A DNA stretch of 64,000 bases from an uncultured Thermoleophilia bacterium (GCA_963702475.1 CAVPCT010000001.1:200545-264544), one strand, 5' to 3'; shown: positions 12,797-17,587, numbered from the stretch's first letter. Program-made: numbers and translations. The notes: generated from the letters alone by a model not told the origin.

Positions 12797-12945
12797 AGGT
12801 CCCTCCCTTGGTCCGCCCAGGCACGGGTACCGGCCGGCGGCTGTGCCCGCCGCCGGCCGGTCCGAGTGTACTGTGCCGCTCCCACGCGCGCGAACGCGCC
12901 GCAGGCCTTCACCGTCAGTGGTCGGCATCCGCGCCTCTTCCCTCA

Positions 12946-12988
12946 AGAAACGCCGCGGGGCGGGGCGCCTTTGCGCCCCGCCCCGCGG
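12946..12988 (-). terminator. Intrinsic terminator downstream of the zinc-ribbon gene
   Basis: Perfect 16-bp stem (12953-12968/12973-12988), 4-nt loop, followed on the minus strand by CGTTTCTT. Confidence 0.7.
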
Positions 12989-12998
12989 GACCTCACGA

Positions 12999-13030
12999 GC
13001 GGCGCGACCGCGCCGCGGCGATCAGCCTCA
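12999..13030 (-). promoter_or_regulatory. Candidate bacterial SECIS element
   Basis: Minus strand reads UGA-GGCUGAUCGCC(11 nt)-GCGGCGC-GGUC-GCGCCGC, with the same spacing and GGUC loop as the E. coli fdhF SECIS. Confidence 0.65.
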
Positions 13031-13231
13031 GCCGAAGCGGCTGCCGGCCGGAGCCGAGCAGCCGCCGCCGGAGCTGGAACCGCCCAGGCTCTTGAGGAAG
13101 CTCGTGAACTTCTGGTGCACGTCCTCGGAGCCACACTCCGGGCAGACGCGGTCCTCGTCCTTGAGGAATCCCTGGCGGAACACTTCGAAACGGTTGCCGC
13201 AGGCGTCGCAGACCAGATCGTAGGAAGCCAT
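13022..13231 (-). CDS. FmdB-family zinc-ribbon protein, candidate selenoprotein (..GC..SRFG-U-G-stop); ends at 13028 without readthrough
   Basis: YDLVCDACGNRFE..CPECGS zinc ribbon, Gly/Ser tail, TGA-GGC-TGA followed by a SECIS-like hairpin. Confidence 0.8.
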
Positions 13232-13256
13232 GACCCTCCACGCGGTTGGTGTCCTG

Positions 13257-13299
13257 ATACCCTGGGGGGTATTATACCTTGCATCGCAGGGCGCGCAAA
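13257..13299 (-). promoter_or_regulatory. Promoter with a CsoR/CstR-family-like operator
   Basis: ATACCC-TGGG-GGGTAT (13257-13272) overlaps a minus-strand TATAAT (13271-13276); a -35-like TTTGCG lies at 13294-13299. Confidence 0.6.
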
Positions 13300-13367
13300 C
13301 GTCCGCCGTGGATTGTACGCTGTCACGCGTGACCGGCGCTCGCGCCGGAGGAACGAGAGGGGAGACC

Positions 13368-13886
13368 ATGAGGCGCACCAGGACCGTCCACTTGTTCGCG
13401 GCACTCGCGCTGATCGTGTCCGCGGCGCTCGCAGGGGGGCTCGCCGGCGCCTGCGGGTCCTCGTCCTCCGACGCGGCCTCGTCCTCAGGCTCGCCCTCGG
13501 CCGAGGTGCCGTTCATCCCGGCGGACGACTTCGACATCGCGGCGTATGCAGGCAAGCCGCTGGTGGTCAACTACTTCGGCTCCTGGTGCCCTCCGTGCAA
13601 CCTCGAGGCCCCGGCGCTCTCGTCCTGGCTTCAGTCCCACCCCGGCGCGCAGTTCGTCGGCATCGCCGTCGACGACACTGAGGACGGCGTGACCGGTTTC
13701 ATGGACGAGCACGACCTCTCGTATCCTGTGGTCCTCGACCCGGGCTGGAACCTCGCCAACGAGAACGGGGTGAGCGGCGTGCCCACGACGATCTTCTACG
13801 ACGCCGAGGGCAACGAGGTCGACCGCGTCGTCGGCGCCATCTCGGAGGCTCAGATCGACCTGAGCTACGCCAGGGCCTCCGAGTGA
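13368..13886 (+). CDS. TlpA/ResA-family thiol-disulfide oxidoreductase lipoprotein
   Basis: Lipobox-like LAGAC, GKPLVVNYFGSWCPPC, GVPTT. Confidence 0.88.
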   Translation: MRRTRTVHLFAALALIVSAALAGGLAGACGSSSSDAASSSGSPSAEVPFIPADDFDIAAYAGKPLVVNYFGSWCPPCNLEAPALSSWLQSHPGAQFVGIAVDDTEDGVTGFMDEHDLSYPVVLDPGWNLANENGVSGVPTTIFYDAEGNEVDRVVGAISEAQIDLSYARASE

Positions 13887-13952: not shown

Positions 13953-14675
13953 GTGATCGCCGTCACCGTCACCAGCCTCAGCCTCTCGGCCGCCGCCCTG
14001 GCGTTCGTCGCCGGGCTGCTGTCGTTCATCTCGCCCTGCGTCCTGCCGCTGCTCCCCGTGTATCTTTCCTTCATCTCCGGCGTAGGGGTGGACCGGCTGG
14101 GCGGGGAGCGCCGCCGGCTGCTGTGGACGTCGCTGCTCTTCGTGGCCGGCTTCACCGTGGTGTTCATGGTCATGGGGGCGGGCGCCGGCGGCGTCGGCCG
14201 GCTCCTCGTGCGGTATCGCCAGGAGCTGACCATCGTGGCCGGCGCCTTCGTGGCCTTCAGCGGCCTGGTGGTGGCCGGCGTCATCCCTCTGCCCAAGCCG
14301 GTGATGCGGGTCTCGCCCAAGCATCGCGGCGCCGGCGGAGCGTTCGTCACCGGCGCCGCTCTCGCGGTGGGCTGGACGCCGTGTGTCGGCTACGTCCTCG
14401 GCGCCATCCTCAGCATGGCCGCCTCCAGCCAGAGCGCCGCGGCCGGGTCGCTGCTCCTGCTCATCTACTCGCTCGGCCTGGGCGTGCCGTTCGTCCTCGC
14501 GGCCCTGGCCTTCGACTGGGTGAGCGCCCGCCTCAAGGTCATCAAGCGCCACTACCGCGGCATCCAGATCGGTGCCGGCGTGCTGCTCGCCGTCTTCGGT
14601 GTGCTCATGATGCTCGGCGTGCTCGACCGGCTCACTCGCTGGCTGCCGTACGTCGCCCCGCCGGGCGGTCTCTGA
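13953..14675 (+). CDS. ccdA: Cytochrome c biogenesis protein CcdA
   Basis: AGLLSFISPCVLPLLP, GWTPCVG, YSLGLGVPF. Confidence 0.9.
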   Translation: MIAVTVTSLSLSAAALAFVAGLLSFISPCVLPLLPVYLSFISGVGVDRLGGERRRLLWTSLLFVAGFTVVFMVMGAGAGGVGRLLVRYRQELTIVAGAFVAFSGLVVAGVIPLPKPVMRVSPKHRGAGGAFVTGAALAVGWTPCVGYVLGAILSMAASSQSAAAGSLLLLIYSLGLGVPFVLAALAFDWVSARLKVIKRHYRGIQIGAGVLLAVFGVLMMLGVLDRLTRWLPYVAPPGGL

Positions 14676-14692: not shown

Positions 14693-17587
14693 ATGAGCCC
14701 CCGCCACCGCATCGCCGAGCCCACGCCCGAGGCTCGAGCCGCCGCCGAAGCCTTGCGACCGCTGGTCGCCGGCCAGATCTCCCTGTCGCCGCTGCAGCGC
14801 TGGCTGTACTCCACCGACGCCTCCAGCTACCGCGTGGTGCCCGACGCCGTCCTCGTGGCCGGCTCGGTCGACGACCTCCACGCGGTGATGGACGTGGCGC
14901 GCCGCTACGGCGTGCCCGTGGTGGCCCGCGGAGCGGCCAGCAGCTGCGCGGGCCAGGCCGTCGGTCCGGGCATCGCCGTTGACTGCTTTGGACTTGACCG
15001 GGTGCTCGCCATCGACCCGCGGGAGCGGACGGCGCGGGTCGAACCGGGCGTCGTCCAGGCCGCCCTCAACCGCGCCGCAGCCGTCCACGGCCTGGAGTTC
15101 GGACCCGACACGTCCACCGTGGACCAGGCCACCATCGGCGGCATGGTGGGCAACAACTCGTCCGGTTCGCGGTCGATCGTGTACGGGGAGACCCGGGACA
15201 AGGTCCTGGAGGTCCGTGCCGTCCTCGCGGATGGGTCGGAGCTGACCGTGGGCGCCTGCGACGGCGAGGATCTTCGCAGCGGGCTGCGTGGGGCGGCGGC
15301 GGACGCTGTGGCGGCGGGTCTCGTGGCCGTCCGCGAGGCGTTCCGCCGCCCGATCGCAGACGACTATCCGCGCACCCGCCGCTGCACGACGGGCTACGAC
15401 CTGCGCGCGCTGCTGGAGCCGCGGCCGAGGCTGGCCCGGCTCCTGGCCGGGTCAGAGGGCACCTTGGGCCTCTTCACCGGGATCGAGGTACGGCTGGACC
15501 CGCGCCCGGAACTGCGCGTGGGTGCGGCCCTCACCTTTCCGGCGCTGCGGCCTGCCCTGGAGGCGAACCTGGTCATCCTCGAGACCGGCCCTTCCGCGGT
15601 GGAGATGGTCGACCTGGTGCCGCTGCGGGCGGCTCCCAACCTCGCCGCGTACCGGCGCGTGGCCTCGCTGCTCGACGGTGACGAGCGGGCCATGCTCACG
15701 GTGGAGTACCAGGGCACGGAAGAGGATGCCCGGGCTGGGCTGGCGCGGCTGCGGGCCGTCGCCGGTGAGCTCGGTGCGGTCCGCGCGGTGTGGCTCGAGG
15801 AGGCGGCGGCCATGGCCGAGGCCGCCGCGTTGCGCCGTGCCGTGACGCCGCTGCTCATGGGGGCGCCCGGCGCCGCCCGGCCCACGGCCTTCGTGGAGGA
15901 CACGGCGGTGGCCCCCGAACGCCTGCCAGACTACCTGGACGCCTTCGAGGCGCTCGTCGCCGCGGCCGGCGCACGCGGCTCGTTCACCGGTCACGCTTCC
16001 GCGGGGTGCACGCACGTGCGGCCGCTGCTCGACCTGAAGACGGCGGCGGGCGTGCGGCAGATGGAGGAGCTCGCCGCAGGTGTGGCGCGTCTCGTGGCGG
16101 AGTACCACGGCGCCATCTCCGGCGAGCACGGCGTGGGGCGGGCGCGCAGCTGGGCCCTGCCCGGCGTGCTGGGGCAGGGCCTCTACGACGCCATGGTGGC
16201 CGTGAAGGACGTCTTCGACCCCGCCCGGTTGCTCGCTCCGGGCATCGTGGTCGACGGGCAAGGGGTGACCGAGGCCCTGCGGTACGGCGGCGACTACCGC
16301 GGGGGCCGCGCCTGGGCGCCGCGCCTGTCGTACGCCGCCGAGGGGGGGTTCGACGCGGCCGTGGAGCGCTGCTTCGGCGCCGGCCAGTGCAAGAAGACCA
16401 CCGGCACCATGTGTCCGCCGGCCGCGGCCACCGGCAGCGAGGCGCGGGCCACCAGGGCGCGGGCCAATGCACTGCAGGGCGTGGTGTGCGGCGCCGTTCC
16501 CCTGGCGGCCATCTCCACCGAGGAGTTCCGCGAGGTCCTGGGCACGTGCGTCGCCTGCAAGGCGTGCAAGACCGAGTGCCCGGCCGGCGTGGACGTCGCC
16601 GCCCTCAAGGCGGAGTGGTTGGCGGAAGTGCGCGCCCGTGAGGGCGTGCCGCCTCTGGCACGTGTGGCCGGCGGCTTCCGTCGCGCGGCGGCTCTGGCGG
16701 CACCGTTCGCTCCCCTCGTCAACGCCGCCGCCGGCACCCGCGCCGCACGCGCCGTCGCCGGCCGCTTGGGTGTCGCCGGTCGCCGGTCGCTCCCGCCGCT
16801 GGCGCGCCGGCCGCTCACGCGCCGCCTGCCGTCCTGCGGCGCCGAGGCCGGCAGGGCGCCCTCCGCCGGCCGGCCCTCCGCCGCCCTGTTCGTCGACTGC
16901 TTCGTGCAGTACCAGGAGCCTGAGGTGGGCGAGGCGCTCGCCGCGCTGCTGCGCGCCGCCGGCGTGCCGCTCGCCCTCGTCGATGCCGGCTGCTGCGGCC
17001 GTACGGCGCTGTCCACGGGGCAGATCGACAAGGCCCGCCGGGCTGCGGACCGTGCCTTGCGCGCGCTGGCGGAACATGCCGCCCGCGGCGAGCAGCTCCT
17101 CTTCGTCGAGCCGAGCTGCCTCTCCATGGTGCTCGACGACTGGCATCGGCTGCTGCCGGGCGACCCGCGCCTCGGCCCTGTCGCCGCGGCCGCGCGCCCC
17201 GCGCTCGGCCTGGTGGCCGATCTCGCGGAGAAGGGCCGCCTGCGCTTCCGCCCCGGCGGCCCAGCCCTCCTCCATGCGCACTGCCACGAGAAGGCCCTGG
17301 GCTTCCAGGCCGACACGGAGCGCGCCCTGCGCGCCGTCCCCGGCCTGGCCCTGCAGGCGCTGGACGCCGGCTGCTGTGGCATGTCCGGCGTCTTCGGCTA
17401 CGAGGCCGAGCACTACGACCTCAGCGTCGCCATGGCGGAGCGCGTGCTCCTGCCGGCGGTGCGGGCCGCGCCGCCGGCCGCCGCCGTGCTCGCCACCGGC
17501 ACATCGTGCCGCGCACAGCTCGCCGATCTGTCCGGCCGGCGGGCGGAGCACCCGTTGACCTTCCTGGCCGGGAGCCTCAGCCGCTGA
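14693..17587 (+). CDS. FAD-binding, Fe-S- and CCG-domain oxidoreductase (YdiJ/GlcDF-like 2-hydroxyacid dehydrogenase)
   Basis: YSTDAS, ATIGGMVGNNSSG, GSEGTLG, HVRP, SGEHG.G, CVACKACKTECP, CCGR, CCGMSG, GTSCR. Confidence 0.88.
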   Translation: MSPRHRIAEPTPEARAAAEALRPLVAGQISLSPLQRWLYSTDASSYRVVPDAVLVAGSVDDLHAVMDVARRYGVPVVARGAASSCAGQAVGPGIAVDCFGLDRVLAIDPRERTARVEPGVVQAALNRAAAVHGLEFGPDTSTVDQATIGGMVGNNSSGSRSIVYGETRDKVLEVRAVLADGSELTVGACDGEDLRSGLRGAAADAVAAGLVAVREAFRRPIADDYPRTRRCTTGYDLRALLEPRPRLARLLAGSEGTLGLFTGIEVRLDPRPELRVGAALTFPALRPALEANLVILETGPSAVEMVDLVPLRAAPNLAAYRRVASLLDGDERAMLTVEYQGTEEDARAGLARLRAVAGELGAVRAVWLEEAAAMAEAAALRRAVTPLLMGAPGAARPTAFVEDTAVAPERLPDYLDAFEALVAAAGARGSFTGHASAGCTHVRPLLDLKTAAGVRQMEELAAGVARLVAEYHGAISGEHGVGRARSWALPGVLGQGLYDAMVAVKDVFDPARLLAPGIVVDGQGVTEALRYGGDYRGGRAWAPRLSYAAEGGFDAAVERCFGAGQCKKTTGTMCPPAAATGSEARATRARANALQGVVCGAVPLAAISTEEFREVLGTCVACKACKTECPAGVDVAALKAEWLAEVRAREGVPPLARVAGGFRRAAALAAPFAPLVNAAAGTRAARAVAGRLGVAGRRSLPPLARRPLTRRLPSCGAEAGRAPSAGRPSAALFVDCFVQYQEPEVGEALAALLRAAGVPLALVDAGCCGRTALSTGQIDKARRAADRALRALAEHAARGEQLLFVEPSCLSMVLDDWHRLLPGDPRLGPVAAAARPALGLVADLAEKGRLRFRPGGPALLHAHCHEKALGFQADTERALRAVPGLALQALDAGCCGMSGVFGYEAEHYDLSVAMAERVLLPAVRAAPPAAAVLATGTSCRAQLADLSGRRAEHPLTFLAGSLSR

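Follow-up and report, generated by a model that had tools for sequence, protein, structure and literature searches.

Does the UGA at the end of a small zinc-ribbon gene of the FmdB type stop translation, or does it encode selenocysteine (Sec)? The gene lies on the minus strand of a 64,000-nucleotide stretch of DNA from an uncultured Thermoleophilia bacterium (GCA_963702475.1 CAVPCT010000001.1, positions 200545-264544 of contig C1 in a 4.3-Mb assembly), referred to below as the window. An earlier note, made from the sequence alone, had proposed that the gene ends in TGA-GGC-TGA, that the first TGA is read as Sec with the help of a hairpin resembling the Sec insertion sequence (SECIS) of Escherichia coli fdhF, and that gene callers overlook this ending. 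We consider it very probable, from sequence comparison, that the gene does encode a selenoprotein ending in Sec-Gly, made by the ordinary SelB/SECIS mechanism. The observations behind this reading are the layout of the sequence, its conservation, the covariation of the hairpin, the Sec machinery of the genome and the likeness to the SECIS of its FdhA.

Layout of the gene and selenocysteine machinery of its genome

The features of the locus, as read here, are the following.

13022..13231, minus strand: full coding sequence as read here, 69 codons plus stop (basis: translation with TGA as U, PF09723/TIGR02605, orthologs)
13109..13231, minus strand: zinc-ribbon domain, residues 1-41, CxxC-x18-CxxC (Pfam match; predicted local distance difference test, pLDDT, of AlphaFold2)
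13058..13060, minus strand: codon of Cys58, the tail cysteine (invariant in a 31-sequence alignment)
13028..13030, minus strand: TGA, predicted Sec68, taken as the stop by gene callers (TGA in orthologs; database entries ending FG)
13025..13027, minus strand: GGC, predicted final residue Gly69 (GGC in 29 of 30 orthologs, CGC in one; GGA, GGT or GGG in distant relatives)
13022..13024, minus strand: TGA, predicted true stop, 5 nt ahead of the hairpin (TGA, TAA or TAG in relatives)
13017..13021, minus strand: variable spacer from the true stop to the hairpin (25 different spacers among 30 orthologs)
12999..13016, minus strand: SECIS-type hairpin, 7-bp stem with GGUC apical loop, in the 3' untranslated region (UTR) (invariant in 30 of 30; pairing; likeness to FdhA)
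12953..12988, minus strand: intrinsic terminator-like hairpin, 16 G-C pairs, loop AAAG, then CGTTTCTT (terminator scan)

The open reading frame (ORF) starts at ATG 13231 on the minus strand, behind a Shine-Dalgarno-like GGAGGG motif, and runs for 67 residues to the first TGA, giving a product that ends ...GGGCSAPAGSRFG. After the codons for FG come TGA (13030-13028), GGC (13027-13025) and TGA (13024-13022), just as the earlier note had described. Codon 68 is the sole in-frame TGA before the final stop. If it is read as Sec, the product has 69 residues and consists of a zinc ribbon, a Gly/Ser-rich linker and a tail of the form C58-x9-U68-G69, with nine residues between Cys58 and codon 68; translation thus returns the C-x9-U-G layout that had been proposed. 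The protein belongs to the FmdB family, as judged by matches to PF09723 (Zn_ribbon_8; 46.3 bits versus a cut-off of 34.4) and TIGR02605 (41.5 bits versus 31.3). The ribbon cysteines C8, C11, C30 and C33 (CxxC-x18-CxxC) are all encoded by the Cys codons TGC or TGT.

Downstream of the first TGA, after 11 nt (13027-13017), the stem strand GCGGCGC (13016-13010) pairs perfectly and without a bulge with GCGCCGC (13005-12999) around a GGTC loop (13009-13006), so that the described geometry of hairpin and spacing is exact. The terminator scan called a single terminator-like site, the separate 16-bp hairpin with a T-rich tail at 12988-12953 (minus strand), which agrees with what had been noted before. 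An intrinsic terminator was ruled out as the role of the GGUC hairpin itself: it has no U tract and is followed by TCGTGAGG, and the sequences on its 3' side vary freely among orthologs. An Rfam scan of 12850-13350 at E values up to 10 gave chance-level matches only, the best of them at 18.8 bits versus a gathering score of 38.

The earlier note had named selA, selB, selC and selD as genes to look for in the genome, having seen none of them in the window. All parts of the machinery were found on contig C3, each above its cut-off: selA (522.2 bits), selB (309.6 bits), selD (350.6 bits; a single in-frame TGA stands where the active-site residue usually lies) and tRNA-Sec (68.3 bits with the Rfam model; anticodon TCA according to ARAGORN). 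The genome therefore has what a SelB/SECIS selenoprotein needs. No sel gene scored above its cut-off on the window's own contig. On contig C3, selD, selA and selB stand in a row at 145461-150506, and SelD is a selenoprotein itself (...KSG-U-AAKLG); the structure downstream of the selD UGA does not have the GGUC-loop layout of the FdhA and FmdB genes.

The FdhA of this genome provides an internal control. Its Sec site is canonical (CART-U-HAP), and the UGA is followed after 11 nt by a 7-bp stem with one G-U pair and the loop GGUCU, which is the layout of the FmdB candidate. The proposed likeness to the fdhF SECIS is in this way matched within the same genome.

Paralogs of the gene carry the hairpin as well. 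The exact 18-mer occurs three times in 4.3 Mb, as opposed to about 0.02 occurrences expected (a rough estimate from base composition), and each copy follows, at 11-13 nt, an FmdB-type gene that ends TGA-(1-2 codons)-TGA. The paralog on contig C4 reads ...CGAPVQRTGYG-U-GC-stop (TGA-GGC-TGC-TGA; stop at 327429-327431, minus strand) and the one on contig C5 reads ...RACHHG-U-G-stop (TGA-GGG-TGA; stop at 484129-484131, minus strand); at both, the distance to the 18-mer is 12-13 nt. From their sequences these are probably two further unannotated selenoproteins. Seven other FmdB-like ORFs of the genome lack the 18-mer. The ending TGA, 1-2 codons, TGA and a hairpin behind it recur in 7 of 7 orthologs of the paralog on C4, one of them with a further compensatory pair and two with shortened loops. 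Elsewhere on contig C5, the plus strand has an ORF of some 156 codons whose product is probably secreted and which ends ...TPKYS-TGA-GGA-CCC-TGA, the first TGA being at 782243, with a 7-bp GGTC-loop hairpin 10 nt after that TGA. This could be a further candidate for C-terminal Sec, or the match could be due to chance.

Conservation in the genus, the phylum and the databases

Close homologs were found in 35 of the 36 genomes of the genus that were searched, and 30 loci, including the window's own, were read; their proteins are 70-85% identical. All 30 end FG-TGA-one codon-TGA, with neither TAA nor TAG at the Sec position. The earlier note had suggested looking for TGA-GGN-stop in orthologs; 29 loci have it, with the codon GGC, and one has CGC instead. 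The 18-nt hairpin is identical in 30 of 30. Neither of the two outcomes that the earlier note had named as refuting its proposal, a lack of Sec machinery or a change of codon and hairpin in orthologs, was thus obtained. Between the first TGA and the stem, 10 loci have 11 nt and 20 have 12 nt. Mean pairwise identity was 0.67 at third codon positions, where 7 of 68 columns are invariant, and only 0.34 over the 20 nt on the 3' side of the hairpin. Because of these values and of the 25 different spacers, the invariance of the hairpin is due to selection and not to recent common descent. One genus member (L056) has the tail U-C-stop, with Cys following the presumed Sec.

We also read 20 further relatives from deeper branches of the genus and from other genera. 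Eighteen of them have TGA, 1-2 codons and a stop, the exceptions being L060 and L066, which have different tails. The tails among the 18 are U-G, U-C, U-A, U-GG, U-GA, U-GL, U-AG and U-SH, with glycine encoded by GGC, GGA, GGT or GGG. Six of the 18 have the genus hairpin, six have it with pair 4 flipped, and in six, from other genera, an unrelated hairpin stands about as far from the TGA. In the flipped stems pair 4 changes from G-C to C-G with the GGUC loop unchanged, and four of these six also have pair 1 changed to A-U. In an alignment of 41 sequences, 99.7% of the cells pair and two of the seven pairs (10 cells) are changed on both sides, which answers the question of covariation that the earlier note had raised. 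The covariation score was reached by none of 500 shuffles, and slid controls dropped to 14-71% pairing. What stands behind the UGA hence combines a spacing of 11-12 nt, a GGUC loop, intact pairing and compensatory pairs. Eight metagenome loci were fetched, of which seven gave an ORF; the pattern was present in 7 of 7 and the exact 18-mer in five. In two genomes (L054 in G026, L064 in G010) a second FmdB paralog with a basic, Cys-free tail and a TAG stop lies directly upstream of the Sec-type FmdB gene, so that these are tandem pairs of ribbon genes with different tail types.

At the level of the phylum, 151 genomes were searched: the family profile found an FmdB-like match in 85 of them, and selA was found in 104. 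Genomes flagged as unpublished count towards both figures; loci were read from the other genomes only. The 29 best-scoring FmdB loci were grouped by protein tail alone. Eleven of these tails end C-x(2-12)-F-[GSTR]; the first stop of all 11 genes is TGA, and 1-2 codons beyond it comes another stop, which is TAA, TAG or TGA. This is true of A+T-rich genomes too, and selA is present in all 11 genomes. Another five loci have short TGA tails of other kinds (U-GF, U-PTD, U-SPW, U-RPW), followed by hairpins. Of the last 13 loci, whose tails are Cys clusters or of other types, 12 stop at TAA or TAG; in none does a stop follow 1-3 codons after a TGA, and in two it does so after TAA or TAG. In the hairpins found in this sample the loop is GTT, AGTT, GTG, GGC, GGA, GGTC, CGTGT or GGGA, and a G always stands first or early in it. 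In two members of another family (L083, L089) the predicted Sec stands before Gly-Phe (...GG-U-GF-stop) and not after Phe-Gly. In-frame TGA matches at L139-L141 were set aside as a different paralog, ending ...DKY (L140 ...KFNY)-TGA, after which the frame stays open for a long stretch and the hairpin pattern is absent.

The pattern tracks the Sec trait. Outside the genus, 24 ORFs from 23 selA-positive genomes included 15 with TGA, 1-3 codons and a stop, 12 of these with a strong hairpin (at least as stable as -6.5 kcal/mol). The 29 FmdB-like ORFs from 22 selA-negative genomes included five with such an ending, only one of these with a hairpin that strong. Sampling differed between the two sets, and the contrast is support rather than a statistical test because the positives are best-scoring loci only and relatives are not independent.

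Among protein databases, 153 relatives were found at E <= 0.001. Of the 120 listed, 113 end ...FG, as expected of gene callers that stop at UGA, and the ending is in this sense missed, as had been claimed. One listed relative, P0078, ends ...GFGCG and is otherwise identical to the truncated P0274, to which it adds Cys-Gly; it therefore confirms the reading frame and the Gly-stop ending. Among short representatives of 50%-identity clusters, 63 of 136 end C-x(2-12)-[FY]-[GSTR] at the protein level, which suggests, on the basis of these endings, a large hidden group.

Weighing of alternative explanations

Several points weigh against Sec insertion. The stem lacks the bulged U of fdhF, as the earlier note had itself acknowledged, and we found no experimental selenium evidence for this protein or its relatives. 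The compensatory changes in the GGUC group may come from only one or two events among related sequences. A Cys homolog, for which the earlier note had recommended looking, exists in P0078, but in just 1 of the 120 listed relatives; the Sec/Cys pair is weak because P0078 derives from a single metagenome contig, and a metagenome scan with P0078 did not recover the Cys-variant contig, the best match being 69% identical. Endings of TGA, 1-3 codons and a stop also arise by chance, as at L101, L109, L130 and L131, which have no hairpin. Although selA was found in 30 of the 36 genus genomes, it was not found in the other six, which have the TGA tail (completeness 64, 66, 68, 82, 90 and 93%). Another genome, G185 (L089; 97% complete), has a U-GF tail and a strong hairpin, and in it selA was not found, selB gave nothing over its cut-off and tRNA-Sec was borderline at 47.3 bits; either its sel locus is unassembled or it has recently lost the Sec trait. 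Finally, the window's own sequence is unremarkable when taken alone. The fold of 41 nt has z = -0.63, with 43 of 200 shuffles equally or more stable; the genome, at 70.2% G+C, contains 57 perfect hairpins of at least 6 bp with a GGTC loop; and 75 of 1,835 gene-like TGA-ending ORFs (4.1%) have a second in-frame stop 1-3 codons on, 20 of the 1,835 after exactly one codon. On the single sequence, then, the ending is no more than chance would give, and with comparison it is more. It is the comparison with relatives that decides the case.

These single-sequence values are what would be expected if a tandem stop and a chance hairpin had met without function in a G+C-rich genome. We regard such a coincidence as extremely improbable, since not one of the 18 hairpin positions varies across 30 species in which the neighboring non-coding sequence is only 34% identical, the stem carries compensatory changes, and an identical element lies behind two other paralogs of the same genome; that the loci are assembly copies of one sequence is argued against by the 70-85% identity of their proteins. 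A less remote alternative, which we nevertheless judge unlikely, is that the UGA is an ordinary stop and the protein ends ...RFG, with the second stop as a back-up and the hairpin in another 3'-UTR role, such as mRNA stability, a regulator site or SelB-binding regulation without insertion. It accords with the FG endings of the 113 database entries, with the unremarkable fold and with the tail-bearing genomes in which selA was not detected, and an FG end is evidently possible without Sec, since in L107, from a selA-negative genome, the tail ...AFG stops at TAG. A back-up stop, however, would not stay at 1-3 codons across families while the codons between and the type of stop change. The first stop is TGA in 11 of 11 F-[GSTR] loci sampled from the phylum, including A+T-rich genomes with TAA or TAG as the second stop. 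Most of the recognizable codons after the UGA across families specify Gly (GGC, GGA, GGT, GGG), as in translated sequence, and P0078 has Cys-Gly-stop in the same frame. In the genus the hairpin always begins 11-12 nt after the UGA, as it does behind the Sec codon of FdhA, and the pattern follows the presence of selA. Read-through without Sec would also explain translated codons behind the UGA: a near-cognate tRNA would insert Trp or Cys, and the hairpin would be a generic stimulator. Stop-codon read-through stimulated by downstream structure occurs in other systems, and the natural FGCG variant indicates that Cys is tolerated at the position. We hold this to be very improbable, as the hairpin has the layout of a bona fide SECIS, that of FdhA in the same genome, and a strong hairpin accompanies the feature in only 1 of the 29 ORFs from selA-negative genomes. 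Moreover, a need for a standard residue here should have made sense codons frequent at the position, whereas only one of the 120 listed relatives has such a codon.

Decoding of the UGA as Sec is accordingly the reading that we prefer, and insertion would proceed as follows. While the UGA at 13030-13028 is in the ribosomal A site, SelB with Sec-tRNA(Sec) would be recruited by the GGUC hairpin 11 nt downstream. The first UGA would be decoded as Sec, one Gly would be added, and the second UGA would end translation. The SECIS would lie wholly in the 3' UTR, upstream of the real terminator, whose hairpin would end the transcript after the SECIS; with Sec penultimate, no part of the element would be translated. 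A SECIS of the E. coli type can function behind a stop codon, a property that has served for the expression of proteins whose penultimate residue is Sec. Actual insertion of selenium here is what we infer from the comparisons above.

Neighboring genes, proposed function and known systems

Two genes for thiol-disulfide proteins adjoin the FmdB gene in 30 of 30 genus loci, as opposed to the downstream M6 peptidase, which is present in only 16 of 30.

13368..13886, plus strand: TlpA/redoxin-like thioredoxin-fold lipoprotein with a WCPPC motif, divergent (Pfam AhpC-TSA, Redoxin, Thioredoxin)
13953..14675, plus strand: CcdA/DsbD-type transmembrane thiol-disulfide electron transporter (Pfam DsbD_TM)

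Downstream of the TlpA-like and CcdA genes lies a large fusion gene (14801-17587, plus strand) for an FAD-linked oxidase (FAD_binding_4 plus FAD-oxidase_C) with 4Fe-4S and CCG cysteine-rich domains. Of 16 Sec-type loci outside the genus, 11 have a thioredoxin-fold gene no more than 1.5 kb away: in 10 it encodes a canonical thioredoxin (WCGPC) and immediately precedes or follows the FmdB gene in the same orientation, and in one it is TlpA-like. A thioredoxin-type neighbor was found in 2 of the 13 other loci, which are not of the Sec type. These counts overstate independence because the loci fall into few families. At one locus (L081 in G039, minus strand, from about 263-517 onward), the FmdB-Sec gene has close to it a gene for a TlpA-like lipoprotein that itself contains an in-frame TGA (...YMTSG-TGA-PAC...). 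The TGA is at the expected first Cys of a CxxC, and by its sequence the product looks like a UxxC redoxin-type selenoprotein.

The thioredoxin-type neighbors suggest that the tail is a thiol/selenol redox arm. Cys58 and Sec68 may form a selenenylsulfide, and the Cys...Sec tail could be served by the thioredoxin-type proteins encoded next door; metal binding by the tail would be an alternative function. The AlphaFold2 model, computed from 31 sequences, had a mean pLDDT of 68.9, with means of 77-86 for 10-residue blocks over residues 1-40, values below 50 for residues 44-57 and about 53 for the tail; confidence is good for the ribbon and low for linker and tail, and the model is uninformative on contacts of the tail. 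A sequence search of the PDB with the family profile returned generic zinc fingers and ribbons only. The low-complexity tail had also brought to mind a precursor of a ribosomally synthesized and post-translationally modified peptide, an idea that was dropped, there being no maturation enzymes among the neighbors examined. Upstream of the ATG by about 40 nt is a perfect TATAAT (13276-13271, minus strand), with TTGCGC 16 nt before it; a consensus scan called no promoter at this site (13271-13298, minus strand). In one soil RNA library (contigs, word share 0.05), short contigs covered 13104-13250 and none covered the 3' end, so that transcription of the SECIS is not shown by them.

We propose only tentatively, and with more doubt than belief, a wider generalization: that FmdB ribbons with tails of the type C-x(n)-[FY]-G-Sec-Gly form a large, widespread and uncatalogued group in which Sec is normal, and that the tail is a thioredoxin-coupled redox or metal-handling arm whose partners are encoded by adjoining trxA or TlpA/CcdA genes, which would place these proteins among the smallest thiol/selenol redox proteins known. 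If the UGA is indeed read as Sec, most database entries of this subgroup, within a very common family of small proteins, are two to four residues short and lack their only selenium atom, the probable functional center of the protein. The bacterial selenoproteome would gain a group, with at least three members in this genome beside SelD and FdhA. There would also be natural examples of a bacterial SECIS acting wholly from the 3' UTR, and a first functional handle on the uncharacterized FmdB family, namely the genetic link between a thiol/selenol tail and proteins of the thioredoxin type. Searches built on Sec/Cys pairs would have a blind spot for such proteins because Cys forms at the Sec position are almost absent.

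Selenoproteins of the FmdB family have been predicted before. Two, with a CxxU motif, came from Global Ocean Sampling (GOS) reads (Zhang and Gladyshev 2008, PMC2398784), and reviews from 2022 and 2026 give the motif of the family as U/CxxU or UxxU (PMC9312934, PMC13188914). The GOS proteins share with ours the family (COG2331/TIGR02605), the status of predictions and a SECIS after an in-frame UGA. Their Sec lies in CxxU, taken as the ribbon's own CxxC, whereas here the ribbon cysteines are all Cys, Sec replaces none of them and would be penultimate in the tail, and the SECIS lies past the true stop. In the literature and catalogues covered, Sec in the FmdB family was placed inside the ribbon only and no C-terminal Sec was found; an earlier description elsewhere is possible. 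The "FmdB" of the Asgard selenoproteome paper is a namesake, formylmethanofuran dehydrogenase subunit B, and an unrelated protein.

Families with Sec at or near the C terminus include UXX-star 1 and 2, KCU-star, SaoC (Cys-Cys-COOH) and HgcB (PMC13188914). As in the present case, their Sec lies a few residues from the stop, so that the SECIS must be largely or wholly behind it, and because of this position such proteins are shown truncated in databases; there is no sequence relationship. Run with hmmscan against release 20 of NCBIfam (E up to 10), the read-through protein gave no match to NF041114, NF041211, NF033934 or NF040734. TIGR02605 was the only model over its cut-off, and NF049953 reached 10.1 bits versus a cut-off of 130, in the zinc-ribbon part. 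By the NCBIfam models, then, the protein is not a member of UXX-star, KCU-star, SaoC or the zinc ribbon-containing (seleno)protein DG.

The SECIS of E. coli fdhF consists of the UGA, an 11-nt spacer, a short G+C-rich stem with a bulged U and an apical loop beginning GGUC. The spacer, the short G+C-rich stem and the start of the loop recur both in this genome's FdhA and in the candidate, whose hairpin, by analogy, presumably recruits SelB as the FdhA and fdhF elements do. The FdhA element differs in that it lies inside the coding sequence and has a GGUCU loop and one G-U pair; the candidate would be untranslated, and its perfect stem is without the bulged U of fdhF.

Animal thioredoxin reductase carries a C-terminal Gly-Cys-Sec-Gly redox arm. 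The two proteins would have in common a penultimate Sec followed by Gly on a flexible extension and a partner Cys in the tail. In the reductase, a flavoenzyme, the Cys is adjacent to Sec, whereas here nine residues separate them in a zinc ribbon of 69 residues, and the likeness is one of possible working, not of membership. The FmdB proteins with Cys-cluster tails (e.g., ...GGCCGGxCGCG[GH]) have the same ribbon, a low-complexity linker and a thiol-rich C terminus, and some of them are encoded directly behind trxA (L080, L087); unlike the Sec-type proteins, they have several Cys and no Sec, and they occur in genomes with and without selA. The candidate joins a known family to a known mechanism, and what is uncatalogued is the position of Sec, which in this subgroup appears to be the rule and not the exception.

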